From the NCBI GenBank assembly GCA_033765235.1, contig JANRIG010000014.1, forward strand, positions 12,896-76,895: a DNA stretch of 64,000 nt, read 5' to 3'. This document shows, one piece after another, positions 3,572-56,262 of the stretch; the stretch's first letter is position 1, and every line of letters starts with the position of its first letter. This DNA is from Cytophagales bacterium (GTDB lineage Bacteria; Bacteroidota; Bacteroidia; Cytophagales; UBA9547). A program made the position numbers and the translations under genes. A model generated the notes under the pieces. It saw only the letters and a program-made list of their open reading frames with translations. It was not told the DNA's origin and searched no databases.

Positions 3572-3729
3572 GTTAAATATTTATGATTTCAACACATTGG
3601 TAGTTACTTTCGTATATATAGTTGTATATATCTTTAATTTTACATTATGATACGTGCAGATTTTAATATTCTCTTTTTTTATATTAATATTGAAATCAGA
3701 TTTATTTTCAAGAAACTAACAATTGCTTT

Positions 3730-15700: not shown

Positions 15701-18700
15701 ATGTAGGTGCAGTAAACTTTCAATTGTACAGCACAGGACCTACCCCTTGTAATACAGTATCAAGTTTTGTAACCCTTCGTTTTGATGCTACTCCTCAAGT
15801 CACAGTAAGTGCAGGACTTGACCAAATAGTATGTGCTGATAATCAGCTGGTAAATCTCAATGGAGTGATTGTAAACCATACATTAGGTTCACAAAGATGG
15901 AACGCATTTAAACCAAGTACCATTACAGGCAATCTCATGCCACCTGCCAATGGAGTGGCTGCCAATGTAAGAGGCTCGTTCAGCGATGCGACTGATGTGA
16001 ATGCAAGCTACACGCCAAGCAGCGCAGATACTGTGGGTACCAATGCGTCGGGGGTATATATAGCACAGACTATCATGCTTTTACTCACAGTGAATGGTAC
16101 AGGTGCTTGTGCAAATCAAATATATTCAGATGAAATGAATGTGTCATTCACAGGGGTGCCTCGAATATCGCCTGTGATTAATATTTTTCCTGCTTCTCTT
16201 TGCGGAAATGAAACTCGACCCATTACACTTAGTGGTACATTTATTAATGATATAGGCAAACAAGCGGTATGGAAAACCACAGGTGACAATGGAATAAGCC
16301 CTTCTGCTTCCGTAAATAATCCACCTACAGTCACAGGAATAAGCTATGTGCTGTCTGCACAAGACAAAACAAGGGGCAATATTGGGTTTACATTTGAAAT
16401 AACGGGCAAAGGCACTTGCAAAGGCAGCTATAAAGTAGATACGCTTATGACCATAAGTCCAACACCTACATTGCAAGTCACTAACCAGACTGCTTGTGAT
16501 GATATTGCCGGAGCAGTGACATTCACTGGTATTACATCAGGAGTGAATCAAGCACGTTGGTTTACAGGTACTTGGGCAGGTCAAGGTTCACTATCTCCCG
16601 CAGGAGTGCAAGGAGTAGTGGCAAACAAAGTGTCTGTGGCATATACTCCATCTGCAGCAGATAAAGCCATGGGCAAAATAAGATTACAACTGGCATCGGC
16701 AGCGACTACCAATAGCTGCCCGCTCGATACCATATTTGCAGACCTTAAATTTGACAAAGCACCTGTAGTAAATGCAGGATTGGATAGAAATATTTGTGCT
16801 GATATTTCAAATATTACCCTAACAAGTTCACTTCAAAATCATCGTAATGCGATATGGCAAGCAGGAGCAAGTGCTACAGGCAGCTATTCACCTTCTGCAG
16901 CAGGCACTGCCATAGGCTATAACTTGTCTGCAGCAGACAAAGAATTGTCAAGGCTCACCTTTACAGTGACATCATCTGACCTGAATAGTGTGTGTGCTGC
17001 GGCTACTGATGAAGTAATAGTATCTATTACAGGCACTCCGTATGCAAGCATAGGCACCATAGATGTATGCTCATACAATGCTTACCGTATGGTGGGTACT
17101 GTGAATGGCAATGCACTCGAATCTGTATGGACGGTATTAGGAACAGGTGGAGGTACTTTTTCACCATCAAGGTTTGATATAAATGCGCGATATTTCCCTA
17201 CACAGGCAGAGCTCAACTCGGGCAAAATACAAATTGGGCTTATTGCGGTAGGCAAAAACACGTGTGGACCATACACTACCAGCAAACAATTAAATGTATC
17301 GCCCAATCCATTCCCTATCATAGATGCAGGCAGAGACCAAAAACTGTGCGTAGGCAGAATATTTGAAGTAGAGGCTGTGAACCCTAAAAAAGAATATACA
17401 TTCCAGTGGTATGCCTCATCTGCCACCAATCCCAATACCATAGCAGGATTTGATGTGCTATCTGCAAGGCTCACTGTGCCGGCTGCCACCAGCAATTATA
17501 TATTGAAAGCAACCAATAAAAAATTGGGTTGTATCACTTACGATACAGTATCTGTCATACCTGTGACGCCTGTGGACTTAAGATTGGTGCCTAAAGTATG
17601 CTTTAATGATACATTAATCATAGCCAAAACTACGGCAAACTCCCGAGTGATATTTACTGACGGTACTTATCAATGGTACAGAGACGGGTCATTCTTGCCG
17701 GGAGAAACAGACCCCAACATGCTCAAAGCAGTGGTGCCTGGCAATTACATACTTGAGTATCAGGAGTATGGATGTGTGAGTACAGATACTACCAATATAA
17801 AACCATTACCTATACTATCTACAGCAGGGATTGTGATTTGCCGTGGCAGTGAGGTAGAGCTAAAACCAAATGTGATATCTGTGACGGGGCTTGACAATAC
17901 CAAGTTTAGCATCAGTTGGGCTCAGGAATATAACTATGCTAACAATGGCATGAACAGGGCAGACAGTGTTGCACTCAAAGCATTGGCATCGTACAGGGCT
18001 ACCGAAAACCGTGTAAGTGCTAAATATTTGATACAGGCGGTAGATTTGTCAGATAACTTGGGTTGTAACAGCTACGATACTATAAGGGTGAAAACACATC
18101 CGCTCCCTCAGATGCAGCTCAAAGACAATCCGGCTTGCGAGGGCGATGTAGTATCGCTGGATGCAAGACCTATCACGGTGACCAGTCCGATAGTATTTAA
18201 CTACTATCCGAGTTTGCGCTCAGACACAGCACGTGTGATGTACAAATGGACTACCAGCTCTACAGTGCCTCTTACACCACCCAAAGATACTGCCCATGCA
18301 CTATCGCTTACTTACAGCAAAGACAAAGATATGTCGGGCACATATATTGCTACGTTCTCCATAGGCAATCCTAATGATGGATTTAGAAATACATGTACCC
18401 AAAAAGATACCTCTAAAGTGATGTTTAACAAAAAACCTGATGTAGAAAATGTAGATAAGCTCACCTACTGCATAGACGATCGTAATGGTATCACACTCGA
18501 TGCAGGCACCAGCACTAAAGATACACTCAGCTATTTGTGGATGTCATCGGGAAGTACTAATAGACAAGTGATGGTGTATGACACACTGATGTATTATTTC
18601 AAAGTATTCAATACCAAAGGTTGCTCAGTATTGGACAGCATACATGTAAAAGCCTCGTGCAAACCATTGGTATTTAAGCCTGACGCATTCATACCCGGAG

Positions 18701-18957
18701 GTAGTCAGGGTGAGGCTAATAAATACTTCATTGTGAAGGGCAAATATTTCAAAGACTTCCGCATAGTGATATACAATCGCTGGGGAGAGGTGATATTTGC
18801 CTACGAAGGTGCGTCAGAAGACTTTGCTTGGGATGGTAACTATAAAGGACAACCTATGCCGGTAGGTGTATATCCCTACATCATACACTACAAAGGTAAG
18901 TATGGGGAATATGCAGAGGAGCGGCAAGAGCGCGGAGCTATAACACTAATAAGATAG
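3730..18957 (+). CDS. Giant (5,075 aa) cell-surface adhesin-like protein with a T9SS type B (gliding motility-associated, CHU_C-like) C-terminal domain; SprB-class cargo
   Basis: This is an uninterrupted 15,228 nt ORF with an ATG start and the signal peptide MLKKLYIFIAITLSLLTVTHTYA. The mature N-terminus (THVVGGVLEY) is typical of this protein class. About 35 modules of about 100 aa occupy roughly 6230-17300. The last ~95 aa (PDAFIPGG...FIVKG...IVIYNRWGEVIF...WDGNYKGQPMPVGVYPYIIHY...GAITLIR) match the type B CTD pattern. Confidence 0.9.
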   Translation: MLKKLYIFIAITLSLLTVTHTYATHVVGGVLEYVRIGPGSLPNSSRYKVVLKLWRDAAGNPWFPPSALIEVRGDTLPINPLTATLPGGSFDPYVTTYPGGTTYPYGGINRMVSGTNSNAPQFKRDFTITWGGAQAALDTFMIRSGALSATAQNGNTRLFPSTNVPSYENPSWNRALKTYPTVQYNRDGYGFVKGVFNTVSGEVLSANGDRTNFTDACVGGRLCVEQYVNTCTFAPKVAIQWAEYIRVVDLPNIPGGYHMTFRLCCRNNALQNLNNPGSTSYAVYARIPDVARLDNATNTWQQLYTTLGININTTLGFNNNTTTGVSIVSGSSVTMGNYTSPGTGKSLVQMVRNSSPRFRSVPPLFVCSYNQFIEDVLGVQQNPAYDHGANDLDADSVQYEVVNAYDEQGPFTDTWGGLPATNINGTLFSGNMRLFATTLPGFPYPDNVNLATYRYAQYRSPYTPTNPLSNSASWQGIILNTSTGTMQIRPQVNVQGLYVVAIRAREFRKMNDGTLRFLGEVTRDYQFRVLNCPAPAIAAIGNSDQCNGTNTVNLVNNNINGISNFYWDTGRDRYTNTLAGVNNLRRRTDNTVNDFPLAANTTTATLPSFNFQNPGTYYVKLVIQRGTKCADSVYRPVNVTSVRAGWGQNPSGQVCVNNGVLFDPFMSSSVVGITTVSGSSTWTNPATNPIPTRRVSVTGVGFVNKMFKWMKPNGSLPVEGDTMQINNYPLPQPARVQRVVWNFGDNVQQIFSFSGSSLQPFGCIVGATSTLGLGIVCANTTVVAFNPAHVASVPGVRHAYTSSGSYVGSMTVWNQFGCQSSLTRSVVVIQNRPSATALGGPVCLNNPLITIPGTVSSAVGGIWSQTPLTGTFLSPISAVGPNLSMIYRLNTTVSPNLTVNLALSTYGNGACPTGVISNVGIGVLAAPAVDAGNNATICRNNRNYRVTGSITGLTNTGFWRTKGTGTFENGLTTISTSHLNAHTYTLSLADSTAGSVQLVLQSTNNNVCTAVKDSITLTLGPTSSIPTVNVGPDRQVGSNNTILTVTGVTYTNSPGIQWQAIPATGGTFTPIGTTTSTTMVYVPSAADIISTTVTLRAMTTIITTNGSCLNVFDDLKLTILPCPVVTIRVTNPTPCTNKAIVTVTGTFTGAGGAVWSGGLGTYLPSAISPNLETIAVGVQKTTLIYLPTQAEIDALIQNLTLTTTINGLCNPVSAVSENIVYQPAPILSIVGAPSISLCKNNSNVSLDFNGYKKLLGTLIPINFPDANITLDWSSTGRTSSLSPVNGKPTTYTAGTDTSLGAVRIFLTATQTNCLPVYDTLNVSFNNNPSLSAGPSQTVCDNNLVVSLSGSVTAPATGGRWRTSGTGIFQSTGTNESTLLNDIYIPNAANGTVTLTLSTTGASIGNGVGQCRVQTTFMNVSISPAPNVRFATVPTICENVASTAGISLSATISGSNVTSSTQGTWVSGAGTYSPGNSNFVISPDPINGGLMSASSIIYTPSTSELSAKTFALNVTASGLGNCISVNNTLVVTIAGKPLAKILTTNGPVCANNATINLTATISGATGQVWSGPVNSVTGGLSASYTPNTTEINSGRVVFRLQTLGELNNCNPEFDVATVNINLAPVVGTGGNIIACINDNVITITGNISSPATSGLWTTSGSGFFGASGSSSTLSLPVTDMTSVYRPSALDKSSALPIKLTLTSQGNGNCNPVFDIMNLSFAQTTTANAGSGYTICVNDFPINLNASGSAGSWQTAPGTFGSSGTSTSTQLVDTFTPNSTLPGIVSLTWRTNSTNQCPAVQSTVTFTVLSAPTVNTGGNITVCGTNRNVPLAGISSSGSGTWASGGFGNFTSTGASFSTGLNDVYVLHNNDILAGQVVLTLSSTNTNPCSQVRATKIIFITPPISSDAGPDQLFCVTQNVITVTGGVLANGSPVSVPTGYWMRHTTATGLFAAGVQTFIGNNTTYTLGLLDIQQAPLVLRFKANSFGACTAPAEDTVKYTFQRSPFGFIQSVSGAVCSDTAYISILASFTGAGGMEWLTTGTGTFFPDRFTANARYVPTAADVSRGFVDFSIRLLGSGVCNGATFGYTTVGISPKPSVSAGSDENICSNIGTVNLTGARVLNTVNNTPPTAVLWYTSNVSSLTGFSSNTNFSFTGFSTNSGASPTYTLSSNDLTNGSVTLYISVTGPGACRAQTARKILTIYDAPVVSVGSASETYCGDVASLTISGTTTYGTPIWQIHPTATGFGTLTSIAGGTKAAFVPVTTLGASMPLSVIFNFVVTTSTCNNVIGSKTIFLTTIPNVSITGGLTSICGDVLGQVTGLSAFSRTGAGLWSSTAPGGFFANNAVLSSGTFVPVQSFKDANHGRTFWITFTSDNNGICTARRDHREVLILTPPSITGAGLTDETYCTDINTLTLSNITITNASGYLIYSSGQGLFTASSANTLAGATPFTNQIYTPATVEKFAGTTIFTLSTTGVGSCAAISKQKAITYVREPGVFAGGDQTICASTSSFQLSASVSGFAGITWTTSGTGSFDNINILGPRYFWSKQDSINARNGVLVTITATVVGNSLCQPKTSRLRLNITPRPLITVTGPIEVCADTSGFPVRAILSLSNTGVNWVNISSTAPGSFFANAFNTTVTYVPSPDDISRRSVILLASTTGNGSCTPASNTITINIRPIPSITFTDYVVCKDVGNYIPLSFTGVTGSYVKQPISLGQHDVNNDLVTWASSGNGTFIDSAVVQVNELYSSNYQVTQEDKDLGKITLLAKLRSFDNLCKAVQSRINVTFIGTPIVNAGVDKSYCRTVGTVQLSGSVTGPETYKYYYKSHLAYHGRYASSNIIDSSLIQNVSVSTVQENFILNNDAFGEQKIILVASASGICKATYTDTLSLNIKAPINLTFSGTSSSIICSDSTYFDIVLHDTKPLGSGDSSTAQYPGYGVAWSARNALGVDASFSQFSPGVFAKRKLTYFPSTSDYQSGAVTFTYTTSGNGICPADSKSSTVAIRQAPDISTLAGLTYCSNNSTIVLTAQISNLTSVSPIVKWYSGGGFPGTFTSTNMSVGTATAPNFSNTYLPSTNQINDGNANLFVEIADANNLCKTKTQSQKVVIKKAPVVDPGVSGSVCSLSGLLLNGSVETNYTTTGASWSIVSGSPILSPTTTTLAVSSTLGTPNYVTSKANVTFSGAIFPTFRLTATETGCINVSADITYGYSATPQYPTIAGGNFCGSDGISLTVAGAIGNDIWSTTATGFFASTKTNTSSKLNDKYIPATGFVGAIHFVLTPNIGSLCGTPAGLNVAHTVSSGMAVNPGNKKIVAVCTNFEPLMIGTISGSNIGIWNSNGTGVFSIPGAEGKPLSTSGTALGGGNREISAIYRPTAADKSSGSVILTLSTSIDGTNICTIPVRDTVSIVFLPAPSTNGQGDKGLCTNVVISTAPGSGITFIGSAFLPSPNSLDPTLTPANGAQWKYANPGTSPGYFLSSGATTSVSDTTTTTLFGITLGMQPQVFIASPQDTARVMVEGTPLIFTLETVNNRNCNPAVSTVQISFAQSPSAYITTTLTSLCADLTEINLEGHIGVALDGVWSTTGAGSFNPDNIYTNTPKTYQLSTSETAILTPQNIYFNLQSTGNGPCRPVTSSVLTVTINPKPALDPGTDQTVCGDISQITLTGINTVSSAIVSAYRWYGGKGTISGMTAPATAMPAFYALNQLDEDFREAILTISTSGPGSCKPLSKNIKITVNPKPAIKASPSQELCNDLDIAFASANITNGLPAQWLAIRYNAGVATPAAGTISVLSTSTSSFVPGGTDAVADSIGIIAITSSTGCNIYRDTINIKLLPRPTVSVSTLAGQCADINSIPLNVTITNALGMTWGRNDKADADLDYATSRYISNPTYFLTQADKSVPFTTTIGFNVSTTGNGTCKTYMATVTVQLVPLPVVTTLGVSKCADISTFNLTDFVPFRQHTTGINWLSFGSGTLTGLAGSATDPTQWVYTPSQNDKNVGAVNFQLYSTGPTPCNTVSSFVTLRFDATPQVTVSAGLDQIVCADNQLVNLNGVIVNHTLGSQRWNAFKPSTITGNLMPPANGVAANVRGSFSDATDVNASYTPSSADTVGTNASGVYIAQTIMLLLTVNGTGACANQIYSDEMNVSFTGVPRISPVINIFPASLCGNETRPITLSGTFINDIGKQAVWKTTGDNGISPSASVNNPPTVTGISYVLSAQDKTRGNIGFTFEITGKGTCKGSYKVDTLMTISPTPTLQVTNQTACDDIAGAVTFTGITSGVNQARWFTGTWAGQGSLSPAGVQGVVANKVSVAYTPSAADKAMGKIRLQLASAATTNSCPLDTIFADLKFDKAPVVNAGLDRNICADISNITLTSSLQNHRNAIWQAGASATGSYSPSAAGTAIGYNLSAADKELSRLTFTVTSSDLNSVCAAATDEVIVSITGTPYASIGTIDVCSYNAYRMVGTVNGNALESVWTVLGTGGGTFSPSRFDINARYFPTQAELNSGKIQIGLIAVGKNTCGPYTTSKQLNVSPNPFPIIDAGRDQKLCVGRIFEVEAVNPKKEYTFQWYASSATNPNTIAGFDVLSARLTVPAATSNYILKATNKKLGCITYDTVSVIPVTPVDLRLVPKVCFNDTLIIAKTTANSRVIFTDGTYQWYRDGSFLPGETDPNMLKAVVPGNYILEYQEYGCVSTDTTNIKPLPILSTAGIVICRGSEVELKPNVISVTGLDNTKFSISWAQEYNYANNGMNRADSVALKALASYRATENRVSAKYLIQAVDLSDNLGCNSYDTIRVKTHPLPQMQLKDNPACEGDVVSLDARPITVTSPIVFNYYPSLRSDTARVMYKWTTSSTVPLTPPKDTAHALSLTYSKDKDMSGTYIATFSIGNPNDGFRNTCTQKDTSKVMFNKKPDVENVDKLTYCIDDRNGITLDAGTSTKDTLSYLWMSSGSTNRQVMVYDTLMYYFKVFNTKGCSVLDSIHVKASCKPLVFKPDAFIPGGSQGEANKYFIVKGKYFKDFRIVIYNRWGEVIFAYEGASEDFAWDGNYKGQPMPVGVYPYIIHYKGKYGEYAEERQERGAITLIR

Positions 18958-20607: not shown

Positions 20608-20651
20608 AAAAAAATCTCTTTACTGGTCTTAGTATCTTGCTGAGACCAGTG
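20608..20651 (-). terminator. Candidate terminator of the che operon
   Basis: On the minus strand there is an 8 bp stem (actggtct/agaccagt) with a 13 nt loop. A 6 nt spacer and a T7 run follow. It starts 40 bp after the cheR stop. Confidence 0.4.
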
Positions 20652-20690: not shown

Positions 20691-21527
20691 TTACGATATT
20701 TTTTTATAAATTTTATAACCGGGAGCGTAGTATTCGAAATATTGACCATATTCTTGAGGCATATTATCGAAATATCCTATAATAAAAATGCCATCATGGC
20801 TCAATGATTTGTGAAGGGAATCTAATACTTTCATTTTGAGTGAATCATTAAAATATATCATGACATTTCTGCAAAAAATAATATCAAATGTATGAGGCAT
20901 AGGGTCATACACCAAGTTGTGTTGGTACAATTCTGAGTATGTTTTTAGTGAATTTTTGATAGTGTAAGTATTGTTTTGCAGTGGTGTAAAGTATTGGTAC
21001 AAAGTACCATAAGGGTTATATTCCAAATAATTTTTATTATACACTTGCATGGCATGGTCATCATAAGTAGCTGATTTAGATATTTCTATAAATTTATTGC
21101 TAAGGTCTGTGGATATGGCTTTGCACTTGTGAAATATCCCTACTTCATGGGTCAATATAGACATAGACCATACTTCTTCTCCGGTACTGCAGCCCGAATG
21201 CCAAATTTTTATGTTATCTTTATGTGACAAAAGTGGCATATACTCGTTTTTGAGATATATCCATAGGTCTGTGTTTCTAAACATTTCTGTGAGTCCTACT
21301 GATATTTCGTCTTTGAAATCGAGCATAAAATTGTAATCAGACATGAGTTTGCGCCACAAGTCTAAAATACCATCCAGCTCAAATTTGTGTATGATGCGTG
21401 AGAGCCTTCTTTTGATAGATGAAGGCTCATATCCGCTAAAATCATAACCATACTTTGTCATGAGCACTTGATTGATGGCTATTAGCTCTTGGTCTGATAT
21501 TTCGGTGTTGTTGGTAGTACTCACCAT
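20691..21527 (-). CDS. cheR: Chemotaxis protein methyltransferase CheR
   Basis: The N-terminal helical domain is CheR-like (LMTKYGYDFSGYEPSSIKRRLSRII). It is followed by a SAM-methyltransferase core (IWHSGCSTGEEVWSMSI, IFCRNVMIYF). Confidence 0.85.
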   Translation of the reverse strand: MVSTTNNTEISDQELIAINQVLMTKYGYDFSGYEPSSIKRRLSRIIHKFELDGILDLWRKLMSDYNFMLDFKDEISVGLTEMFRNTDLWIYLKNEYMPLLSHKDNIKIWHSGCSTGEEVWSMSILTHEVGIFHKCKAISTDLSNKFIEISKSATYDDHAMQVYNKNYLEYNPYGTLYQYFTPLQNNTYTIKNSLKTYSELYQHNLVYDPMPHTFDIIFCRNVMIYFNDSLKMKVLDSLHKSLSHDGIFIIGYFDNMPQEYGQYFEYYAPGYKIYKKIS

Positions 21528-21535
21528 TATTATTA

Positions 21536-23338
21536 TTATGACAATACAGAAATTTCATTGATATTGGCAAATATTGCGTATATGGTGGATAGTGATCCGT
21601 CCATACCTTTGCCTTGCGAAAAGTGTACGAAGTATATATAAGGCAAACCATCGTTTGAAGTTAAGGTAATGCCTGTATTGTAAGGTAGATTGTGTTGCAG
21701 AGAGTCGTGCACGGCAGATAAATGAAAATTGTCATTATTACAAGGGTGTAAGAGCTCACTGAAATTTTTGTTTTTTATGTCTTTTCTTTTAAGTTTCAGA
21801 TTGTCGAGCAAGTGTTGGTTGGCAGATTTTATGGTAAAGTCAGGGTTTAGTTCTATCATTCCGAATATTTCATTTATGGCATTTAGTTTGTTTTTATATT
21901 CATTTTCAGTTTCTTTTTTTTCGGTGGTAAAGTTGGCAAACATCAATATTTTATATGGCTTATTATTAAGGTCAAAAAGTGGGTTATAGTTTATCTGCAT
22001 CCATATTTCTTTGCCGTTTTTGTCTATTTTTCTAAACTCTCCGGAGTTGAATTGGCCCATTTTAAGGCTTTGCCAAAGCATATTATGTTTTTCGGAATCT
22101 TGCTCGTCATGGGGTAAAAATATTTTTTCATTTTTGCCGATAAGTTCATCTTTTTTGTACCCGATAACCTGTGCAAACATTTCATTTACATCCAATATAT
22201 TACCGTTTAGGTCGAGGTGTACACAAGCATTGCTTTTGTTGATGGCATCGAGCATAGAATGATTTAGGTTGGTCTCGGCAGTGATTTCTCTCAATTTTTG
22301 TTGCAATGCTTCTTGAGCAGCTCTGAGTTCCTCTTCATTTTGCATGAGGGTATTTTCTTTTTCTTTGAGTGCAATGTTTATGTCTTCGGATATTTGCAAT
22401 AGCGATGACATTTTGGTTGCAGATTTTATGGTATGGAGGTTTATGGCAAAACTCTCTGCTACAGCAGATATGAGTTCTACTTTGTTTTCATCTATAATAT
22501 CAAAAGATGCTATCTCAATGGCGCCATAAGCCACATTATTTGTCATGAGTGGCACTATGAGCACACAATTGGGTGTGGCATGACCAAGGCCTGAGGTGAT
22601 GTGTACATAATTTGGAGGTATGTCTGTAAGATATATTTTGTCTTTTTCTAATATACACTGCCCTACAAGACCTTCTTTTAGTTCTATTCTTTTTTCTAAA
22701 TGCTTAACTCTATCATAAGCGTAACAGCCTGTGAGGGTTATGTGCACATCACCGGGGTCTGAGTCTTCTATGATATATATGCCTCCTTGATTGGCAGATA
22801 TATATTTTACCAATTGTGAAATGACCAATGTAGATATTTCATGAATGTGTGATTGAGAATGTGTTTGAAGCAACTGTGCAAATTTTGATTTGCCGGCCAC
22901 CAGCCATAATCTCATTTTTTCATCATTTGCCAATGTTTTGAGTTTGTGTTGCATGTCATTAATTGCTTTGAAAAGGCTGTGATTTTTCATGCTTTCGTCA
23001 ATAGTATGTGAGCTATTGTAGTTTGAGATATTATTTATCATATTTTCAGCATTTTGTATAATATAGTTGCGCTCGTATATTGACATATTTACTTGATCAT
23101 ATACATGGCTGTTCAGCTTCCCTGTATTCACAAAATTTTTTATGGGGGCAATAAAAGTATGGCTAATGATGATATATAGTATGATAAACGGCAGAGAAGA
23201 TGCTGCCACAATAGCCAACTTGGCATATATGCTTTGTATGGTGCACATATACAATACAAATATGACACCTGCAGTGATGTTTAAGAATAGTAATAACATG
23301 GCAGTGTAGTATATTCTATTTATGTATTTGTTTTTCAT
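21536..23338 (-). CDS. Membrane-anchored sensor-like protein: 2 TM helices, GAF, coiled coil, PAS, PAS-like; no recognisable output domain
   Basis: Two N-terminal hydrophobic helices are joined by a very short loop. A GAF-like block follows (GGIYIIED...LVGQCILEKDKIYLTDIP...LIVPLMTNNVAYGAIEIASF). A PAS domain (GKNEKIFLPHDE...FRKIDKNGKEIWMQINYNPLFD...KILMFANFTTEKK) is related to the PAS domains of the MCP in this operon. I saw no kinase, MCP-signalling, GGDEF/EAL or DNA-binding motifs. Confidence 0.65.
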   Translation of the reverse strand: MKNKYINRIYYTAMLLLFLNITAGVIFVLYMCTIQSIYAKLAIVAASSLPFIILYIIISHTFIAPIKNFVNTGKLNSHVYDQVNMSIYERNYIIQNAENMINNISNYNSSHTIDESMKNHSLFKAINDMQHKLKTLANDEKMRLWLVAGKSKFAQLLQTHSQSHIHEISTLVISQLVKYISANQGGIYIIEDSDPGDVHITLTGCYAYDRVKHLEKRIELKEGLVGQCILEKDKIYLTDIPPNYVHITSGLGHATPNCVLIVPLMTNNVAYGAIEIASFDIIDENKVELISAVAESFAINLHTIKSATKMSSLLQISEDINIALKEKENTLMQNEEELRAAQEALQQKLREITAETNLNHSMLDAINKSNACVHLDLNGNILDVNEMFAQVIGYKKDELIGKNEKIFLPHDEQDSEKHNMLWQSLKMGQFNSGEFRKIDKNGKEIWMQINYNPLFDLNNKPYKILMFANFTTEKKETENEYKNKLNAINEIFGMIELNPDFTIKSANQHLLDNLKLKRKDIKNKNFSELLHPCNNDNFHLSAVHDSLQHNLPYNTGITLTSNDGLPYIYFVHFSQGKGMDGSLSTIYAIFANINEISVLS

Positions 23339-23985
23339 GGCTGTTGATTTAAAGTATAATTAATAATTTTCTCATGGTTTTGTATTACAAGGTCTATAAA
23401 CTTGATATCGAATGTGAATATGAATGATGGGCTAATGGGAGCTTGCTGTATTTCAAAATTGTTTTTGTATATGAATATGATATTGTTGTAATTCATATCA
23501 TATATGATTTTTCGGTGCAGGTATTCTGTATTATTTATTTCAAGACTTGGCACATGTGCATAGCAAGCTATTTTGAATACATTGGCAAAATGAGCAATGG
23601 CAGACGCTGTGACGATATTGGCAGTTTCGAGCATTATGGCTTTTTTGAAAGTGTCATCCATACATATTTTGTCTGCAGAAAAGTATGAATAATACATGTC
23701 AGCCTCGGCACAGGGAATGGAGAAAAACGATTTGCCTGTTATTTTCCCTCTTATTTCAGATTCTATATAGTAGGTTTTGGATATGTCTTTATGAATATTT
23801 GGGAGCAATTTTTCTAAACTTATCATACTGGCTTGCCCCGGCTTTACAGGATGTTTGATGAGCTTTTGCAATGAGTCTGCTGCTTTGTGAAATGCATCGT
23901 TGATAATGGCTTCGGCGGTATCGCTCTCTGTGGGAGACATGTAGTTTTGCACTATTTGCTCGTATATATCGCTTTTAGTTGTCAT
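23335..23985 (-). CDS. CheC/CheX-family-like protein (putative CheY-P phosphatase)
   Basis: It contains LETANIVTASAIAHFANVFKIACYAHVP, which is E-x2-N-x22-P, the core of the CheC/CheX/FliY active-site motif. The upstream D/S position is Ala. A looser N-terminal site is SDTAEAIIND. It is embedded between cheA and the GAF-PAS gene with overlapping stop/start codons. Confidence 0.5.
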   Translation of the reverse strand: MTTKSDIYEQIVQNYMSPTESDTAEAIINDAFHKAADSLQKLIKHPVKPGQASMISLEKLLPNIHKDISKTYYIESEIRGKITGKSFFSIPCAEADMYYSYFSADKICMDDTFKKAIMLETANIVTASAIAHFANVFKIACYAHVPSLEINNTEYLHRKIIYDMNYNNIIFIYKNNFEIQQAPISPSFIFTFDIKFIDLVIQNHEKIINYTLNQQP

Positions 23986-25780
23986 TGTATTGAAGTTTTG
24001 ATACTTTGAATAATTCTGTGATTACAGACGGGATATCTAATACCAAGCATACATTTCCATTGCCCAGTATGGTGGCACCACTGATGAATTTAATATTTTC
24101 GAGTGGTTTCTCGAGTGGTTTTTCTACAATCTCTTTTTGCTGAAGCAGCCTATCTACCACAAATCCTACATCTTTGCCCCCATAAGACACAATGATGACA
24201 TAAAGTCTGTCATATGCGTCTAATTTGTCAAATGTATGTTGGAGTGCTTGCTTGTATGAGTTGTCGCGGTCATGAAATATGTCTGACAAGAACACGATGC
24301 TGATATTTTTGTTGAGATAGGTAGCTATCAATCCTTTGTTTATTTTATGAATATCTTTTTTTTGCAGCTGTATCACCGCTTCTGTGTAGGTGAGCGGTAT
24401 TGCAAACTCATTGTTGTCAAGCTCAAATAATAATGCAGCTTTCAATGCCATAGAAGAGGGTAGCGATAGCTCTATTGTAGTGCCTGCATTCACTTCTGTA
24501 GTTATTTTCACTTTTGCACCTATGGCATCCATACTTTTTTTGACCACATCCATTCCCACACCTCTTCCTGATACTGACGTTATTTTGTCGCTCGACGAAA
24601 ATCCGGGTTCAAATACAAGGTTGATAATCTGGTCTTTGGTCATTTTGCTTGCAAAATCTGCATTTATTATCCCCTTTTCTATAGCTTTAGATTTGATAAT
24701 GTCATGATTAATGCCTTTGCCGTCATCAGTAATTTTGATGACAATAGTTTCTTTTTCGCTGGTAGCACTTATAGTGAGGCTGCCAATTTCATTTTTGCCG
24801 AGTGCAAGTCTTTGAGCAGGACTTTCTATTCCATGGCTTATAGCGTTTCTTACTATGTGCACCAATGAGTCTGATATGATCTGGAGCACATTTCTGTCTA
24901 TTTCTGTTTCTGCTCCCTCTATTATTAGATTTACTCTCTTGTCTTCAATCACAGCGGTGTCTCTCACTACCCTGTGTATTTTGTTGAAAAGTATATTGAG
25001 TTGTACAAGCCTCACATTCATGACCGAATATTGCAGCTCTGAGGTGATACGCATAAGCCTTGAAAATTCATTTTTGCGACCTGTACTTTGCACAGAAGTG
25101 ATTACTCTGTCGCGCTCTATGAGCAGCTCGCCTACCAAGTTCATGAGGTTGTCTAATTTTTTTACGGGTATTTGTATGATATCCGAAAAAGTGAGTTTGT
25201 TTTCTGTGCCATCAACAAGGTCATTGCTTATTATATCTTCACTCAAGTTGGTGTCCGGCAATGGATCTGTAATTTTATTTTTAGGCGTATCATCATCATT
25301 TGTCAAATCAGGTTTGTTATTTATTTCAATATTTTGATTTAACACTTTTTCGCCGGCAGATTTTATCTTTTGGCTCGGTATAGAGCCGTAGCCTTCTTTT
25401 GAATTTCTGATAAGTACTTCGAGTTTGGTTTTTAGGCCTTTGTATTTTACTTGCTCAGGTTTGGCAGATTTTATATTTTGAATCATGCTCACCAATAAAT
25501 CGTTTGCTTTGAAAAGGTCGTTGAATATTTTTTCTTCTATCACTATACTTCCTTTTCTTATTTCGGCAAATATATCTTCCATTACATGGGCCATGTCTGC
25601 TATGTGGTGGTAGCCCATGGCAGATGCATTGGCTTTGATGGTATGGGTTATTCTGAATATGTTATCTATGGCTTTTTTGTCTGAGTGTGATTTTTCGAGC
25701 TTGGCAAACAGCATATTGAGCTCCTCAGATCCTTCGGAGGCTTCGGCTACAAATAGTTCTTTTAGTTCGTCGTCTTTCAT
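23975..25780 (-). CDS. cheA: Chemotaxis histidine kinase CheA
   Basis: It has an Hpt domain (FRITHTIKANASAMGY) and a low-complexity linker. The dimerisation/HATPase core shows HIVRNAISHGIE, DDGKGIN and GRGVGMDVV. A C-terminal CheW-like domain is present. Confidence 0.9.
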   Translation of the reverse strand: MKDDELKELFVAEASEGSEELNMLFAKLEKSHSDKKAIDNIFRITHTIKANASAMGYHHIADMAHVMEDIFAEIRKGSIVIEEKIFNDLFKANDLLVSMIQNIKSAKPEQVKYKGLKTKLEVLIRNSKEGYGSIPSQKIKSAGEKVLNQNIEINNKPDLTNDDDTPKNKITDPLPDTNLSEDIISNDLVDGTENKLTFSDIIQIPVKKLDNLMNLVGELLIERDRVITSVQSTGRKNEFSRLMRITSELQYSVMNVRLVQLNILFNKIHRVVRDTAVIEDKRVNLIIEGAETEIDRNVLQIISDSLVHIVRNAISHGIESPAQRLALGKNEIGSLTISATSEKETIVIKITDDGKGINHDIIKSKAIEKGIINADFASKMTKDQIINLVFEPGFSSSDKITSVSGRGVGMDVVKKSMDAIGAKVKITTEVNAGTTIELSLPSSMALKAALLFELDNNEFAIPLTYTEAVIQLQKKDIHKINKGLIATYLNKNISIVFLSDIFHDRDNSYKQALQHTFDKLDAYDRLYVIIVSYGGKDVGFVVDRLLQQKEIVEKPLEKPLENIKFISGATILGNGNVCLVLDIPSVITELFKVSKLQYNDN

Positions 25781-25787
25781 AATATTA

Positions 25788-26822
25788 TTAATCTAAGCAT
25801 CCTACAATATATGCGGGTATATCTTTGAGGTCGAGTATTTGTGATACAGCATTCATCTCTACAGCTGCTTTGGGCATGCCCCACACTATGCTGGAGAGTT
25901 CGTTTTGAGCTATAGTCATGCTACCTTGCCTATGCATTTTGAGCATACCTGATGCTCCGTCTTTGCCCATTCCTGTGAGCAATATGCCTATACTTCTTTG
26001 TTTATACACCTCTGATATAGAGGTGAATATGCCATCTACTGATGGGTGATTAAACTCTTTGTATGTATTGTCATCACATTTGAACAAATATTTTTCATTG
26101 AGTTTAGTGATTTTCATATTACAATCACCGGGCATGAAATATGCTGTATTGGCCTTGAGTACTTCGTCCGGGGCAGCTATCTTCACATCAAATGGTGAAA
26201 TGGCGTGAAGCCTTGATGCAAATGACTTAATAAACTCATTGGGCATGTGCTGTGCTATTACTATGGTAATGGGCAAATTTTGTGGAAGGTTGACCAATAT
26301 ATATTCTATAGCACCGGTGCCTCCCGTAGATGAGCCAATGGCTACTATATCATACGGACAAGTGTTTGAAAATGTATGGGTTAAATTATTCTTTTGTAAA
26401 TATTTTTTGTGTTTTAATATATCTATTTCAGATGCTTGTTTTATTTTTTGTAAAATTTGGGATTCAAGTTCTCTTATTTTTGAGTTTATGAGTCCAAGTG
26501 GTTTGTCTATGAAGTCTATAGCCCCTTCATTGAGTGCTTCTATGGCAGAGTCGGGGTTTGTGGCTCTCAGGCTGCTCAGTATCACTATAGGTGTAGGGTT
26601 TTCAGACATTATTTTTTTGATGGCATACAGCCCGTCATAGTCTTTCATGATGAGGTCAAGCAGGACTACATCAGGCTTGAGTAATTTTGATTTTTCAAAT
26701 GCTTCTTTTCCATCTTTGGCTGTGTCTGCTACGGTAAATTGGTTGCTGTGCATAATCATGTCGCTGAGTATCATTCTCATGAAGCCTGAGTCATCCACTA
26801 TGAGTACTGACACTTGTTTCAT
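25788..26822 (-). CDS. cheB: Protein-glutamate methylesterase CheB (REC plus methylesterase)
   Basis: The REC domain shows VLIVDDS...VVLLDLIM. The CheB catalytic domain shows IGSSTGG, AQHMP and LTGMGKDG. Confidence 0.9.
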   Translation of the reverse strand: MKQVSVLIVDDSGFMRMILSDMIMHSNQFTVADTAKDGKEAFEKSKLLKPDVVLLDLIMKDYDGLYAIKKIMSENPTPIVILSSLRATNPDSAIEALNEGAIDFIDKPLGLINSKIRELESQILQKIKQASEIDILKHKKYLQKNNLTHTFSNTCPYDIVAIGSSTGGTGAIEYILVNLPQNLPITIVIAQHMPNEFIKSFASRLHAISPFDVKIAAPDEVLKANTAYFMPGDCNMKITKLNEKYLFKCDDNTYKEFNHPSVDGIFTSISEVYKQRSIGILLTGMGKDGASGMLKMHRQGSMTIAQNELSSIVWGMPKAAVEMNAVSQILDLKDIPAYIVGCLD

Positions 26823-26839
26823 AATATTTTTAATGTTTT

Positions 26840-27202
26840 TTAGACCAAGGCATTTTTTACCACACTTATCAATTGCTCAGAGGTAAATGGTTTTATGATA
26901 TAGTGGCTGGCACCGCGTTTTATGCCTTCTTCTACTACAGACTCTTGACCTACAGCACTTATCATCACTACTTTGGACTCTATCTCTTCTTCTTTGAGTA
27001 CATTGAGTATGTCTAAGCCGAGCATATCGGGCAGTATATTGTCGAGGGTGATGAGGTCAGGTTGCATCTCTATGGCCATGTCTATGGCAGATTCGCCATT
27101 GCCTGCCATACCTACTACTTGATATCCTGCCTCTAATAGGGTGTCTCTGATGATGGTGCGCATATACAGCGAGTCATCTACTACAAGTACTTTTTTTGCC
27201 AT
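26840..27202 (-). CDS. cheY: Single-domain response regulator CheY
   Basis: This is a 120 aa REC-only protein (KVLVVDDS, LITLDNILPDM, ISAVG, YIIKPF) located between cheW and cheB. Confidence 0.9.
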   Translation of the reverse strand: MAKKVLVVDDSLYMRTIIRDTLLEAGYQVVGMAGNGESAIDMAIEMQPDLITLDNILPDMLGLDILNVLKEEEIESKVVMISAVGQESVVEEGIKRGASHYIIKPFTSEQLISVVKNALV

Positions 27203-27243
27203 AATAATATTGTTTTGCGAGTTGTTAAATTTAATATTCTACC

Positions 27244-27768
27244 TTACATCAATGTGCTCACTTCTTCTTTTTTGATTAATCTATATATATCAATGAGTAT
27301 TATCAACCTGTTTTGTTTTTTTACTATACCAAGTATGTAGCCACTATCTATAGATGTGCCTTGTATGATATTTGGTGTATTATCTATGTCTTTTTCTGAG
27401 ATTGCCAGTGTATTGGGCACTTCTCTCACAAGTATGCCCATTTTCACCTCATTGCTTTCTACCACCAAGGTGTAATTTTGAATAGAGGTATTGGCAGTAT
27501 CTTTTTCTAAAGCTAAGCCTAATCTTTCTTCAGGGTCTATGATAGACAAAATATTGCCTCTGATATTGGCCACCCCTTTGATATAGCGCGGAGCCAAGGG
27601 CACTTTGGTGATATTGGGAGTGATAACAACCTCTTTTATCTGGTCTATCATCAGGCCATATTCTTCGTTTCCAAGTTTAAAGACTATTACCTGCGATGTT
27701 TTCAGATTGCTTTGGGCTATATCTTCCATGCTTTTTTCTTGCGATATGCTTTTTACTGCGCTTTGCAT
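27244..27768 (-). CDS. cheW: Chemotaxis coupling protein CheW
   Basis: This is a 174 aa single CheW-like domain (VIVFKLGNEEYGLMIDQIKEV...GVANIRGNILSIIDP...LIILIDI). Confidence 0.85.
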   Translation of the reverse strand: MQSAVKSISQEKSMEDIAQSNLKTSQVIVFKLGNEEYGLMIDQIKEVVITPNITKVPLAPRYIKGVANIRGNILSIIDPEERLGLALEKDTANTSIQNYTLVVESNEVKMGILVREVPNTLAISEKDIDNTPNIIQGTSIDSGYILGIVKKQNRLIILIDIYRLIKKEEVSTLM

Positions 27769-27775
27769 AGTTATA

Positions 27776-29965
27776 TTAGTTATTGCTCAATTTGAACTGG
27801 TCTATTCCTTTTTTCAATTCTTCGGCTACTTTTGACAGGTTATCGCCTGTTTGAGCTATTTCATCCATAGATTTGTTGAGCTCAATGGAGCTATTTGCAA
27901 CTTCTTGTGTGCCTGATGCCACCTCTTCGGCTACTACTACTATTTTTTCAATATTTTTTACTACAGTGCCTATGCCTTCTTTTTGTGAAGTGGTGCCTGC
28001 CAATATTTCTTTGGAAAGGCTAAATGTTTCGGTACTGGAGGAATATATAACATTGAAAACCTCTTCAGCAGATTTTGATGCTTGTGAGCCCGACTCTACA
28101 CTGTTTTTCATTTTGTCTATTGCCTTATTTGCAGATTGGATATCTTTTTGCACATCTTTTATTACTTTATCTATGTCCACAGCAGATTTGCGGGAGTCTT
28201 CGGCAAGTTTTCTTATTTCTTCTGCCACCACCGCAAATCCTCTGCCAGCATCGCCCGCTCTGGCAGCCTCTATGGCGGCATTGAGTGCAAGCAGGTTGGT
28301 TTGAGAGGCTATGTCGGTGATTACGTTGAGTGTCCGAGATATTTCTTCACTTCTATTGGTAAGTACTTCTATAGAGTTGGAGGTGATGTCTGCAGAGCCC
28401 GATATGCCATTCATATTATCTACTACTTGCTTTATGATTTTCATGCCATTTTGGCAACTTTCTTGTCCTTTTTCGGCAGAAGTATTTATGATTTCGGCTT
28501 TTTTGCCTACTTCATTAGAAGACCTGAGTATGGTTTCTACCAGTTTTGATGATTCATCTGTACGCGTAGCCTGGTCTTGTGCACCTGAAGCCATTTGTTG
28601 TATGGCTGATGCTACCTCTTTAGTGCTTTTTTTGGCACTTTCAGTGCGATTATTCATTTGTACTGATGAGGTAGCTATGGTATAAGAGCTTTTTTCTATC
28701 TCTTTCATGAGCTTATTCAAGTTTTTCAAGGCTATATTGAGTGCATCTGCCATGTCTTTTATGTCTCCTTTCGCTTGCATTTTAAAGCTTTGAGTAAGGT
28801 CTCCCATTGATATTGCAGTAATTATTCTGTTTATTTCCAACACAGGTTCAGATATGTTGATTAATAATATATTTATAGCATCGCCGAGTGATTTCCATTG
28901 CCCTTCAAACTTGTCTGTGACTAGTCTTTCTCTTAGTTGACCTTCTGCCCCTGCCTTATTTACTATATTGTTAATATCGCCTACTATGCCCTTTATGGTA
29001 TCGCGCAGTGCCAATAAATCATTGGTTACCGTTAATATATCACCACTCAGTTTTACACCTTTTATATTCATGGCAGCATCAAAATTGCCTTTAGATATTT
29101 CGCTTATGAAGTTGCTGGCAGCATTAAATCCTATAGTAAACTCAGTGACGTCTGTTGCAAATTTTATCACTTTCACCACTTTGTTATTATGGTCAAGTAT
29201 AGGGTTGTACGATGCCTGTATATATATTTCTTTGCCGTTTTTTCCTATTCTTTTGTAGGTAGCAGCTTCATACTCGCCTCTGTTTAGCTTTTCCCAAAAC
29301 ATTTTGTATTCATTAGAGTTTGTATAAGCTGGTTCACAAAACATCCGATGATGCTTTCCTTTTATCTCCTCTATTGTATATCCTACGGTGTTTACAAATA
29401 GCTCATTGGCTGTGATAATGGTGCCGTCCATGTTAAACTCTATGATGGCTGTAGATTTGCTGATGGCATTTATTTGTCCTATGTTAAGTGCGTTTTGCAT
29501 CATTTGTGCAGTGACGTCTGTAGCAAATTTTATCACTTTCACTACTTTGTTATTATGGTCAAGTATGGGGTTGTACGATGCTTGTATGTATATTTCTTTA
29601 CCGTTTTTGCCTATTCGTTTATAGGTAGCAGCATCATATTCGCCACGGTTGAGTTTTTCCCAAAACATTTTGTATTCATTAGAGTTTGCATACGCTTGCT
29701 CACAAAACATGCGGTGATGCTTTCCTTGTATTTCTGCCAAGGTGTACCCTATGGCCTTAAGAAATAAATCATTGGCAGTACTCACAGTACCGTCAGGATA
29801 AAACTCTATTACTGCTGTTGACTTATTAATAGCGTCTAATTTTGCTTGCATCTCTGACATTAATATACTTTGTCGGTCAGAAGTTTCTCTTTTTGCAATA
29901 TCTGTTTCTGTCGTTTTTGTCACGGTGCCGTTTGACGGTTCAATGTCTTTATAATTATTTTTCAT
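27776..29965 (-). CDS. Soluble methyl-accepting chemotaxis protein with two tandem PAS domains, HAMP and an MCP signalling domain
   Basis: No hydrophobic TM segment is present. Two PAS repeats lie 122 aa apart. There is a HAMP-like segment. The canonical hairpin tip is [40 protein letters not shown]. Confidence 0.9.
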
Positions 29966-30306
29966 ATGAACTTATTTTTTTGTGTATATACGCTATATTA
30001 ATGTGAAAGTAACTGTTATTTGTGTGAAAAATTTTTATTAAAAAATGCATGAATTGTACTTTTACAACATAATAATAAGAATTTGTATACAAAATGTTGA
30101 TAATCAAAAAATAAAAAATCTAATAAATATGACTATTTATATGTAAAATATACACTAATTTCTCTTGATTTTATATTTATTACATGCTATAACATATTAA
30201 AATAATAATTTATTTTTCGAATTCAAACAAATTTCATTTATTGGGGTCATAATAATGTGCGGTCGTCCTATCGTACTAAAATATTTATAAACTAATGTTA
30301 TAATAT

Positions 30307-31026
30307 ATGAAAGTGCTTATTGTAGATGATGATAATTTGTCTGTCAAAATATTAGAATCATTATTAAAGTCTCACTTTTTGCATATAGTAAGCGAGATAT
30401 CAATAGCCAAAGACATAGATGAGGCAAAAGTAAAAATAGAAAACACATCTCCTCAGCTATTATTTTTAGATGTACATTTTCCCGAAAGCACGGGGTTTGA
30501 TTTGCTCAACAGTCTAAAAATTATTACATTTGAAGTCATCATTACTACTGCTACTGAAAACTATGCCATAGATGCTTATAAAGTAAATGCCATCGATTTT
30601 TTGCTCAAGCCTGTACAAATAGATGATTTGGAACGCTGCCTCAACAAAGTCATAAATAAGTTGAACAATACAGGCATTATACCTGCCATCAGTAAGAAAA
30701 AATTAACTTTACCTACCATAGGAGGCTCTCTGTTTGTGAATATTAACGATATATGTTTTTGTGAGGCAGATAATAATTATACCAAGATATACTTATCAGA
30801 TGGCAAAAGTGAGACAATCACCCTTTCGCTTAAAGAATTAGAGGCATTATTGCCAACAAATTTATTTTTTAGAATACATAAGTCTTTCTTAGTAAATTTT
30901 GAAAAGATTGTACAATATAATAAGTCGGAAGGCGGTACCATAGTTGTAGAAGATTATCACAATCGTATGTTGCCTGTATCAAAGCAAATAAAAGAGACGC
31001 TTATCAATAGGCTGAGGATTTCATAA
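30307..31026 (+). CDS. LytTR-family response regulator (REC plus LytTR DNA-binding domain)
   Basis: The REC domain shows KVLIVDDD...LLFLDVHFP...LLKP. The C-terminal LytTR-like domain shows ICFCEADNNYTKIYL...FFRIHKSFLVN. No histidine kinase gene is adjacent other than cheA. Confidence 0.85.
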   Translation: MKVLIVDDDNLSVKILESLLKSHFLHIVSEISIAKDIDEAKVKIENTSPQLLFLDVHFPESTGFDLLNSLKIITFEVIITTATENYAIDAYKVNAIDFLLKPVQIDDLERCLNKVINKLNNTGIIPAISKKKLTLPTIGGSLFVNINDICFCEADNNYTKIYLSDGKSETITLSLKELEALLPTNLFFRIHKSFLVNFEKIVQYNKSEGGTIVVEDYHNRMLPVSKQIKETLINRLRIS

Positions 31027-31043: not shown

Positions 31044-31622
31044 TCAATCCTCCACCAAGCAGCCAATCGGTTTTGTTTTTGGGGTTAATATTGGCTCGTT
31101 ATTCATCAATGCCTGCAGCACATCGGTGAGATAATATTGGGTAATTACAGTTCGCTTTTTGCCAAGGTCTTCAAGGCGATTGTCAATAGAGCCATAATAT
31201 AACACTTCATGGTAATCATTTATTACTGCTACGGTAGGTGCGGTGTCTATTTTGTAGTGCCTCGTTATTTTCATGGAGTGGTCTGTGTATATAGGTATTT
31301 TTATAGGATTATTATCCAAAAAATCATCTAACTCATCTTTTTGTACAGTTTTTTGAGATACTATTGCCACAAAATATATGCTGTCAGCCTTGTATTGTGA
31401 GGCTATTTTGTTCATGTCTTGTACGTATGACTTGCACATGGGGCAATATGGCAGCATAAAAAACACAACCCTGTATTTGGCATGTGTTATTGATTTCCAG
31501 TCGGCAGGTTTGCCGCTCACAGTATGTTTTATATCAGCAGAAAAATGGCTATTTTGACCACGTATTGAATATAGAGCAGATAGTGAAAAAATGATGCACA
31601 ACATACTATTTCTCAAATACAT
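31044..31622 (-). CDS. Secreted thioredoxin-fold (TlpA/redoxin-like) protein
   Basis: It has a signal peptide, a CxxC motif in the context FFMLPYCPMCKSY, and a size typical of periplasmic thiol-disulfide oxidoreductases. Confidence 0.55.
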   Translation of the reverse strand: MYLRNSMLCIIFSLSALYSIRGQNSHFSADIKHTVSGKPADWKSITHAKYRVVFFMLPYCPMCKSYVQDMNKIASQYKADSIYFVAIVSQKTVQKDELDDFLDNNPIKIPIYTDHSMKITRHYKIDTAPTVAVINDYHEVLYYGSIDNRLEDLGKKRTVITQYYLTDVLQALMNNEPILTPKTKPIGCLVED

Positions 31623-31673: not shown

Positions 31674-32276
31674 TTAAGCTTTTTTATACAGTTCTTCTAC
31701 TTTGTCCCAATTTACCACATTCCAAAAAGCAGTGATATAGTCAGGTCTCCGATTTTGATATTTGAGATAATAAGCATGCTCCCACACATCGATACCGAGT
31801 ATTGGAGTGCCTTTTGCCTCGGCTATATCCATGAGAGGGTTGTCTTGGTTGGGCGTAGAGGTAATGGCAATTTCTTTGTTTGCCACTATGAGCCATGCCC
31901 AGCCTGAGCCAAATCTTGTAGTGGCAGCTTTGGCAAACTCTTCTTTGAAGGCATCGAATGAGCCAAACTTTTTGTCAATGGCTGCTGCTACTTCGCCTGA
32001 TGGCTTGCCTTTGCCTGAGGGGGTAAGCAATGTCCAAAACAAGGAGTGGTTGTAATGCCCTCCGCCATTGTTGCGCACAGCCATTGGGTATTTGCTAATG
32101 TTTTTACAAATATCTTCTATAGATAAATTTTCTTCTGGTTTGCCTGACACGGCATTGTTAAGATTGGTCACATAAGCATTATGGTGCTTGCCATGGTGTA
32201 TTTCCATGGTCATTTTGTCAAAGTGTGGCTCTAGAGATTCTGTAGCATAAGGTAGAGCAGGAAGGGTGAAAGCCAT
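31674..32276 (-). CDS. sodA: Fe/Mn superoxide dismutase
   Basis: The N-terminus is [32 protein letters not shown]. The C-terminal metal-binding motif is [18 protein letters not shown]. Confidence 0.95.
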
Positions 32277-56261: not shown

Positions 56262-56262
56262 T

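Follow-up and report, generated by a model that had tools for sequence, protein, structure and literature searches.

A complete Che-type chemosensory operon in a Cytophagales genome belongs to a conserved Bacteroidota family with a possible role in gliding

What does a complete chemotaxis pathway control in a lineage that is not known to be flagellated, and does it matter that the pathway is encoded next to a giant surface adhesin? Both questions are raised by a 64-kb stretch of DNA from a Cytophagales bacterium (contig JANRIG010000014.1; the whole stretch is called the window below), in which a group of che genes lies one gene away from an adhesin gene with a type IX secretion system (T9SS) sorting domain. 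The original prediction, made from the letters of the sequence, described a complete eight-gene Che operon in a T9SS/gliding Bacteroidota and treated its neighborhood as meaningful. We confirmed that the operon is a complete, real Che-type chemosensory pathway. The presumed source also agreed with the public record, where CheC and CheA proteins identical to those of the window are deposited as "MAG: Cytophagales bacterium" (MAG, metagenome-assembled genome).

The open reading frame (ORF) listing gave eight co-directional ORFs on the minus strand at window positions 20691-29965, exactly where they had been placed, and the Pfam and NCBIfam annotations agreed with the predicted gene set. The first gene encodes a soluble chemoreceptor, or methyl-accepting chemotaxis protein (MCP), of 729 aa with a PAS-PAS-HAMP-MCP signaling domain arrangement (27776..29965). 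It is followed by the coupling protein CheW (174 aa, 27244..27768; Pfam CheW, 2.2e-30), the single-domain response regulator CheY (120 aa, 26840..27202; Pfam Response_reg, 2.7e-25), the methylesterase CheB with its receiver (344 aa, 25788..26822; Pfam CheB_methylest, 3e-55, and Response_reg) and the histidine kinase CheA (601 aa, 23975..25780; Pfam Hpt, H-kinase_dim, HATPase_c and CheW). The last three genes encode a CheC-fold protein predicted to be a phosphatase of phosphorylated CheY (CheY-P; 216 aa, 23335..23985, overlapping cheA by 11 nt), a membrane-anchored GAF-PAS-PAS protein (600 aa, 21536..23338; Pfam GAF_2, 3e-14, and PAS_9 in two stretches) and the methyltransferase CheR (278 aa, 20691..21527; Pfam CheR, 4e-35, and CheR_N). 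From MCP to CheR, the intergenic gaps are 7, 41, 17, 7, -11, -4 and 8 bp.

The borders of the operon were read from the flanking sequence. A terminator-like hairpin with a T-run at 20608..20650 (-), recognized by eye, appears to close the operon; it has an 8-bp stem (ACTGGTCT...AGACCAGT) followed by TTTTTTT, stands 41 nt past the cheR stop codon, and lies within the spacer of 161 bp between cheR and the lipase-like hydrolase gene that comes next. A consensus promoter/terminator scanner did not report this hairpin; the scanner returned 66 hits where 47 were expected, and its sigma-70 consensus is not applicable to Bacteroidota. At the other end, an AT-rich spacer of 340 bp (29966..30306) between the MCP gene and a divergent LytTR gene is presumed to be the promoter region of the operon. 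Tandem Repeats Finder reported no repeats over the operon. An exact-sequence search with CheA found 2 short metagenome contigs that carry the same operon.

We scanned one genome per Genome Taxonomy Database species for relatives of the window CheA and confirmed at least 184 of them, of which 80 loci with 46-59% CheA identity were retrieved (approximately 1.4 Mb in all, with flanks of up to about 10 kb) and compared by tblastn and ORF clustering. The carriers were nearly all Cytophagales (Cyclobacteriaceae, Chryseolinea, Ohtaekwangia, Marivirga, Fulvivirga, Thermoflexibacter and Xanthocytophaga, with Flammeovirga as a further carrier); the others were Flavobacteriales (Vicingaceae, Luteibaculum), an Aureispira MAG (Saprospiraceae) and Sphingobacteriales MAGs. 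No Bacteroidales were among the relatives listed. The best 120 CheA clusters in a collection of 5.8 billion proteins had identities of 46-61%, and every named one was from Bacteroidota. Public records already label members of the family, for example as "chemotaxis protein CheA". The statement of the original prediction that Che pathways are uncommon in Bacteroidota therefore needs qualifying, given a family present in at least 184 species-level genomes. The prediction had also named a well-populated class with a characterized output as grounds for giving up its claim; the class is well populated, and a characterized output was not found in the literature. Two MAGs deposited as "uncultured Bifidobacteriaceae" (L003 and L067, with CheA identities of 59% and 51%) were among the loci, a label that is probably due to mis-binning or wrong taxonomy.

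Gene order was conserved across these loci as MCP, CheW, CheY, CheB, CheA, CheC and CheR, with 2 optional members: CheD between cheW and cheY in 31 loci, and a transmembrane GAF-PAS gene between cheC and cheR in 43. The window operon has no CheD gene, and only 41 bp separate its cheW and cheY. Identity over the block was 46-82% across orders, and annotated relatives had the same operon boundaries as the window with unrelated flanks. The window operon is an intact, vertically conserved, canonical Che operon of a large and already annotated Bacteroidota family. Some members depart from this order. One cluster of Rhodocytophaga rosea (L083) has CheD and no CheC. That of Flammeovirga agarivorans (L084) is reduced to ParA-MCP-CheW-CheY-CheA-CheC, without cheB and cheR, and its receptor (2687-8941 of that locus) is a 2084-aa protein with dozens of PAS-family matches.

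The phosphorelay is complete at the level of sequence, with phospho-acceptor residues intact and both adaptation enzymes, CheR and CheB, present. The Pfam matches that define the MCP, CheA and CheW all exceeded their cut-offs by a wide margin. CheA has the architecture P1(Hpt)-linker-P3-P4-P5, with a single Hpt domain and without a C-terminal receiver; a P2 domain was not detectable, and the 95-residue linker between P1 and P3 looks low-complexity. Its phospho-acceptor histidine sits within the motif ITHTIKA. The best match of CheA in the PDB was Thermotoga maritima CheA (1b3q, 258 bits over P3-P5, compared to 227 for the Escherichia coli P3-P5 chain), and the NCBIfam model CheA_Halo scored 355 bits compared to 288 for the E. 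coli-type model. CheW matched solved CheW structures in the PDB and was found in the same position in 67 of the 80 related loci. In CheY, D9/D10, D53, S82, Y100 and K103-P are present as in canonical CheY, and the best PDB matches were the Pyrococcus horikoshii and T. maritima proteins, the top one being archaeal CheY 6er7. CheY was also better conserved than any other gene in the operon (median identity 67%, maximum 82%; the median for CheA was 50%), and as a stand-alone receiver it is presumed to be the output of the pathway. CheB scored 354 bits against the NCBIfam CheB model (cut-off 293), and in 69 related loci the conserved block ended with CheR.

The 216-aa protein encoded after cheA had been labeled CheC/CheX-like. 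Taken alone, it had no match in Pfam or, by phmmer, in the PDB, a protein search returned only itself, and the NCBIfam match to CheC was marginal (E = 0.0085). An ORF of this kind, of about 200 aa, directly follows cheA in 74 of the 80 related loci, and the identity of the protein was solved through an alignment of 44 of these positional homologues. Their profile matched T. maritima CheC (1xkr) with E = 4.4e-14; individually, 28 of the 44 matched Pfam CheC and 17 matched CheX. The second active site, E120-x2-N123-x22-P146, was invariant in all 44. This spacing, E-x2-N-x22-P, is the signature within the CheC/CheX/FliY phosphatase motif (D/S)-x3-E-x2-N-x22-P, to which the window protein conforms. 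The first site is degenerate, with the glutamate kept in 23 of the 44 homologues and the asparagine in 25, and the window protein has alanine at the glutamate position. An AlphaFold2 model that drew on the window protein together with 16 homologues from databases had a mean predicted local distance difference test score (pLDDT) of 85.9 and a predicted template-modeling score (pTM) of 0.84. With this model, the best Foldseek hit was again 1xkr (E = 2.5e-11; template-modeling scores 0.69/0.72), and all 36 hits at E <= 1e-3 were CheC, CheX, FliY or FliM (middle domain). Profile, invariant residues and model together bear out the earlier label: the protein has a CheC fold and is predicted to be a CheY-P phosphatase with a single intact active site, a previously unlabeled part of the conserved gene set.

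The only receptor in the operon had been predicted to be cytoplasmic, and the hydropathy scan agreed, since no transmembrane or hydrophobic segment was found in the MCP. Pfam matches to the protein were MCPsignal (8.9e-41), PAS_3 in two stretches and HAMP_2. The signaling hairpin motif is at residue 566, and its tip is flanked by arms of about 153 and 158 residues. The alignment to T. maritima TM1143 (2ch7) was nearly ungapped over about 300 aa, and in the aligned region the MCP is about 28 aa (four heptads) longer than E. coli Tsr; by length and alignment, rather than by a class-specific hidden Markov model, its signaling domain appears to be of 44H-type length. One methylation-consensus site was found, at residue 452. 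The two PAS domains are a tandem internal duplication (29143-29442 and 29509-29808, units of 300 nt placed 366 nt apart, with 84% nucleotide identity), and long runs of the two units are identical at the protein level, which points to recent duplication or to gene conversion.

The second sensory protein had been described as a membrane GAF-PAS-PAS protein, a description that also held. The hydropathy scan found two N-terminal hydrophobic segments within residues 9-67, and the remainder of the protein comprises a GAF domain, one strong PAS domain and a second, weaker one, with no recognizable output domain. Its PAS domain is 33-37% identical to those of the MCP. Eight homologues from the same position (568-1006 aa) were scanned with Pfam; they contained GAF plus 1-5 PAS domains, and none had an MCP, kinase or cyclase domain. 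The gene was also considered as a truncated second MCP after a weak MCP match at one locus, and this reading was dropped because all 8 homologues lacked MCP and kinase domains. The protein is predicted to be an accessory sensor of the cluster.

Taken together, the system looks F1-like, that is, of the Thermotoga/Firmicute/archaeal type, as judged by proxies (receptor length, alignment and best matches), because it combines a 44H-length MCP with CheC (and CheD in 31 relatives) and because CheA and CheY are nearest to T. maritima and archaeal proteins. The F1 class of chemosensory systems was reportedly defined by Wuichet and Zhulin in 2010. Like the F1 systems of T. maritima, Bacillus subtilis and Archaea, the operon encodes CheA, CheW, CheY, CheB and CheR with a CheC-type phosphatase; it shares with them the 44H receptor, CheD in many relatives, and a CheA, CheY and CheC that are most similar to T. 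maritima or archaeal proteins. It differs in that its lineage has no known flagella or archaella, its CheA has no detectable P2, its CheC has one conserved site only, CheD and CheV are absent, the sole receptor is soluble and has multiple PAS domains, and the operon includes an additional transmembrane GAF-PAS gene.

The operon does not appear to be Tfp-like (type IV pilus) or Frz-like, because CheA has one Hpt domain and no receiver. The multi-Hpt, receiver-bearing CheA (ChpA/PilL type) of Tfp (Pil-Chp) systems is absent, as are pil genes within the window. The Frz pathway of Myxococcus xanthus is comparable in that its receptor FrzCD is cytoplasmic and lacks transmembrane segments, and in serving surface motility in a non-flagellated host with methylation-based adaptation. 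However, FrzE is a CheA-CheY fusion, FrzZ has two receivers and there is no CheC, whereas the window has a receiver-less CheA and a single-domain CheY; the motors are also unrelated, being Agl/Glt and pili for Frz and T9SS here. A further class, termed ACF (alternative cellular function), has a non-motility output, and its clusters often encode a CheA fused to a receiver or an output regulator of their own; by Pfam, the window operon has neither a fused receiver nor a regulator with an output domain.

These components suggest the following pathway. The cytoplasmic multi-PAS MCP would respond to a signal from within the cell, for example redox state, energy, oxygen or light, and the membrane GAF-PAS protein, whose PAS domains belong to the same subfamily, may assist, feed into or tether it through PAS-PAS contacts. 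The MCP would control CheA autophosphorylation through CheW, and CheA would phosphorylate the single-domain CheY and also CheB. CheR and CheB would give methylation-based adaptation, and the single-site CheC-fold phosphatase would rapidly remove CheY-P. CheY-P would then bias stops or reversals of a motor other than a flagellum, for which the gliding machinery linked to T9SS is the most likely candidate.

We consider fast behavioral control of gliding through CheY-P to be the leading reading of the output, with a probability of roughly 40%. Full adaptation, combined with a well-conserved CheY that stands alone and a phosphatase whose active site is invariant, makes a design suited to fast behavioral control. 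Gliding is favored because the lineages are not known to be flagellated, because this is a fast-reset taxis design and because the carriers are largely gliders. The carriers include an Aureispira MAG and members of the cultured genera Marivirga, Thermoflexibacter, Fulvivirga, Flammeovirga, Chryseolinea and Ohtaekwangia, several of which glide, and Bacteroidia are not known to have flagella. The window genome itself encodes GldJ and T9SS substrates, and the window CheA, with its single Hpt and no receiver, is unlike Tfp, Frz and many ACF kinases.

There is also a precedent that favors gliding as the output. The receiver of PorX binds the cytoplasmic domain of PorL, the T9SS motor, and a CheY-like model of reversal or switching has been proposed (PMC5005315). 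The likeness is that a CheY-family receiver docks on a T9SS motor protein; the differences are that PorX is a REC-PglZ protein (REC, receiver) fed by the kinase PorY, outside Che pathways, and that docking of the window CheY on GldL or PorL is hypothetical. Archaeal chemotaxis offers another precedent, since there F1-type CheY with CheC/CheD steers a non-flagellar motor, the archaellum, through the adaptor CheF; no CheF-like adaptor was identified in the window. The more specific proposal that an F1-type pathway has been re-targeted to the T9SS gliding motor in Bacteroidia, with CheY-P binding for example the cytoplasmic domain of GldL/PorL and biasing adhesin tracks or stops, seems to us on the unlikely side.

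Several points weigh against control of gliding. Gliding or T9SS genes were not linked to the operon at the 80 related loci, with the exception of one gldJ gene 8 kb away. Each cluster has one soluble, PAS-rich receptor, which is also typical of ACF pathways, and a subset of relatives has genes for a REC-PP2C protein, a SiaC-like protein and a DUF6272 protein after cheR, an arrangement that resembles a partner-switch output. In addition, the model glider Flavobacterium johnsoniae is reported to have no che genes, so gliding does not need the system.

A pathway of the ACF type, in which an intracellular cue is relayed to a non-motility output, is possible and has to be taken seriously as a tentative alternative. 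Candidate outputs include a cascade of partner switching or sigma factors, the turnover of second messengers, biofilm formation and cell differentiation, with CheY as a phosphate sink or as an adaptor to a regulatory protein. A non-motility output stands close behind gliding, given that motility genes are not linked to the operon and that one sub-branch has the partner-switch-like module. The genes for REC-PP2C (SpoIIE), the SiaC-family protein and DUF6272 follow cheR in 9-15 related loci of a separate, Flavobacteriales-rich sub-branch, often joined by a fused ABC transporter gene (examples are L032 13179-14468, L018 15905-16279, L034 17464-18021 and L065 16841-19888), and CheA may feed into this module as an output of the partner-switch kind. 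The single dedicated soluble receptor in the cluster fits such a pathway, and so do the PAS-HisKA-HATPase and hybrid kinase genes found further upstream in 27 related loci and the lack of cheB and cheR in some relatives, Flammeovirga for example. However, the window operon has no output gene of this kind, and the module belongs to another sub-branch, where it nearly excludes the GAF-PAS gene: of the 53 loci whose flanks were long enough, 33 had GAF-PAS, 12 had REC-PP2C and 1 had both. The receiver fusion common in ACF kinases is absent from the window CheA, and the predicted invariant-site CheY-P phosphatase, full adaptation and conserved stand-alone CheY are rather the design of a fast behavioral system.

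That the cluster serves a conventional flagellum or type IV pilus encoded elsewhere in the genome is improbable. In its favor, the hallmarks of the system are F-type, the window shows no more than 64 kb of the genome, and "flagellar" genes are listed in some published genomes of gliding Bacteroidetes, for example Sediminibacterium (PMC9258536); however, the genes in question there (flgJ, motA/tolQ/exbB) are generic homologues. The class Bacteroidia has been described as non-flagellated (PMC12951363). The annotated ORFs of the window (Pfam and NCBIfam) included no flagellar or pilus family, in agreement with the original prediction, and none was found in the recurrent flank clusters of the 80 loci (Pfam), a scan in which sporadic genes could be missed. 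A CheA with a single Hpt domain and no receiver is also not of the ChpA/PilL type.

The neighborhood itself raises another possibility, namely that the operon is coupled to the adjacent adhesin, for example by steering its movement. The T9SS hallmarks were found as predicted. The adhesin ORF (3730-18957, +) encodes 5075 aa, with a C-terminal T9SS type B sorting domain that matched TIGR04131 with 37.6 bits (cut-off 35); the first 1000 residues had no NCBIfam match. Together with two divergent PorP/SprF genes (1329-2420 and 2478-3536, both -), it makes up what appears from sequence to be an SprB/SprF-like adhesin locus. Two other window proteins carry type A sorting tails. A GldJ_short lipoprotein gene (58423-59652, +; TIGR03530, 632 bits) lies 28 kb from the che operon, immediately upstream of mutS (59722-62337).

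The lipase gene alone separates cheR from the adhesin gene, so the two are physically close. However, the adhesin gene is on the opposite strand, and the terminator-like hairpin stands in between along with the separate lipase gene. Homologues of the adhesin, both PorP/SprF genes, both proteins with type A tails, the lipase, the superoxide dismutase (SOD) and the redoxin were found in 0 of the 80 related loci within about 10 kb. Because no neighbor recurs there, the position of the che operon beside a T9SS adhesin is best read as a genome-specific coincidence; moreover, T9SS cargo genes are abundant in such genomes, so that one within a few genes would be expected by chance. The neighborhood thus does not seem meaningful: the che system does not extend to the adhesin and PorP/SprF genes, and functional coupling to them is very improbable.

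A still weaker idea is that the operon is a non-functional relic of a flagellated ancestor, as partial che sets without flagella have been called in Chlorobi (PMC3362086), and it is hardly credible given eight intact ORFs with translational coupling, retained catalytic and phospho-acceptor residues, a block 46-82% identical across orders and a Cytophagales CheA/CheW transcript differentially expressed in a natural mat (PMC12875742).

Two further genes of the window were examined as partners and set aside. An orphan LytTR-type response regulator without an adjacent kinase (30307-31026, +) is divergent from the MCP gene and was considered as the output of the operon; a homologue was present in only 3 of the 80 related loci and was never adjacent. 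Linkage of gldJ to the che operon recurred at a single related locus (the related MAG L009/L085), where the gene for a 69%-identical GldJ is found past mfd, 8 kb to the downstream side of cheA; we judged this to be roughly at chance level, and the candidate was rejected.

A ParA/MinD-type ATPase gene directly upstream of the soluble multi-PAS MCP gene was found in 29 of the 80 related loci (for example L083 3347-4093, L084 1612-2379 and L046 1429-2190) and not in the window. In Rhodobacter, the ParA-like protein PpfA positions the cytoplasmic chemoreceptor clusters. The R. sphaeroides TlpT/PpfA system resembles these relatives in its soluble receptor and in the ParA/MinD-type gene upstream of it, and it differs from the window operon, which has no ParA-like gene. 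By analogy with PpfA, the ATPase of the relatives may position a cytoplasmic array.

For the steering of T9SS-powered gliders, a complete, fast-reset Che pathway conserved in many gliding Cytophagales and relatives offers a genetic handle. A 2025 study of T9SS rotational bias described the evidence for sensory transducers that control rotation as "currently absent" (PMC12239597). In agreement with the original prediction that no Che system had been tied to gliding, full-text literature searches found no such paper, and they found no functional or comparative studies of Che systems in Bacteroidia; mentions at the level of annotation were found in PMC9258536 and PMC12875742. The window itself adds no special evidence for the link to gliding, and the family is already annotated publicly. 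The comparison does define a conserved parts list that includes the CheC-fold phosphatase and the embedded transmembrane GAF-PAS protein. If an F1 pathway has been re-targeted to gliding, gliders would gain temporal energy taxis or phototaxis through a cytoplasmic PAS receptor array, and the archaeal F1 system re-targeted to the archaellum would be a parallel.

Other annotated genes of the window were housekeeping genes (MetH, MutS, asparagine synthase, SOD and others) or had no family match. The genes for the redoxin (31044-31622) and for the Fe/Mn superoxide dismutase (31674-32276) are on the strand opposite to the LytTR gene. Five ORFs of 192-558 aa were without a match: those at 41968-43515 (-) and 50045-51721 (+) in Pfam and NCBIfam, and those at 56218-57336 (+), 62542-63120 (-) and 63159-63995 (-) in NCBIfam, the one collection against which they were scanned. 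The N-terminal domain of a 985-aa protein (37884-40841, +) is a TMEM260-like protein O-mannosyltransferase domain (1e-75), which is an uncommon annotation among bacteria.

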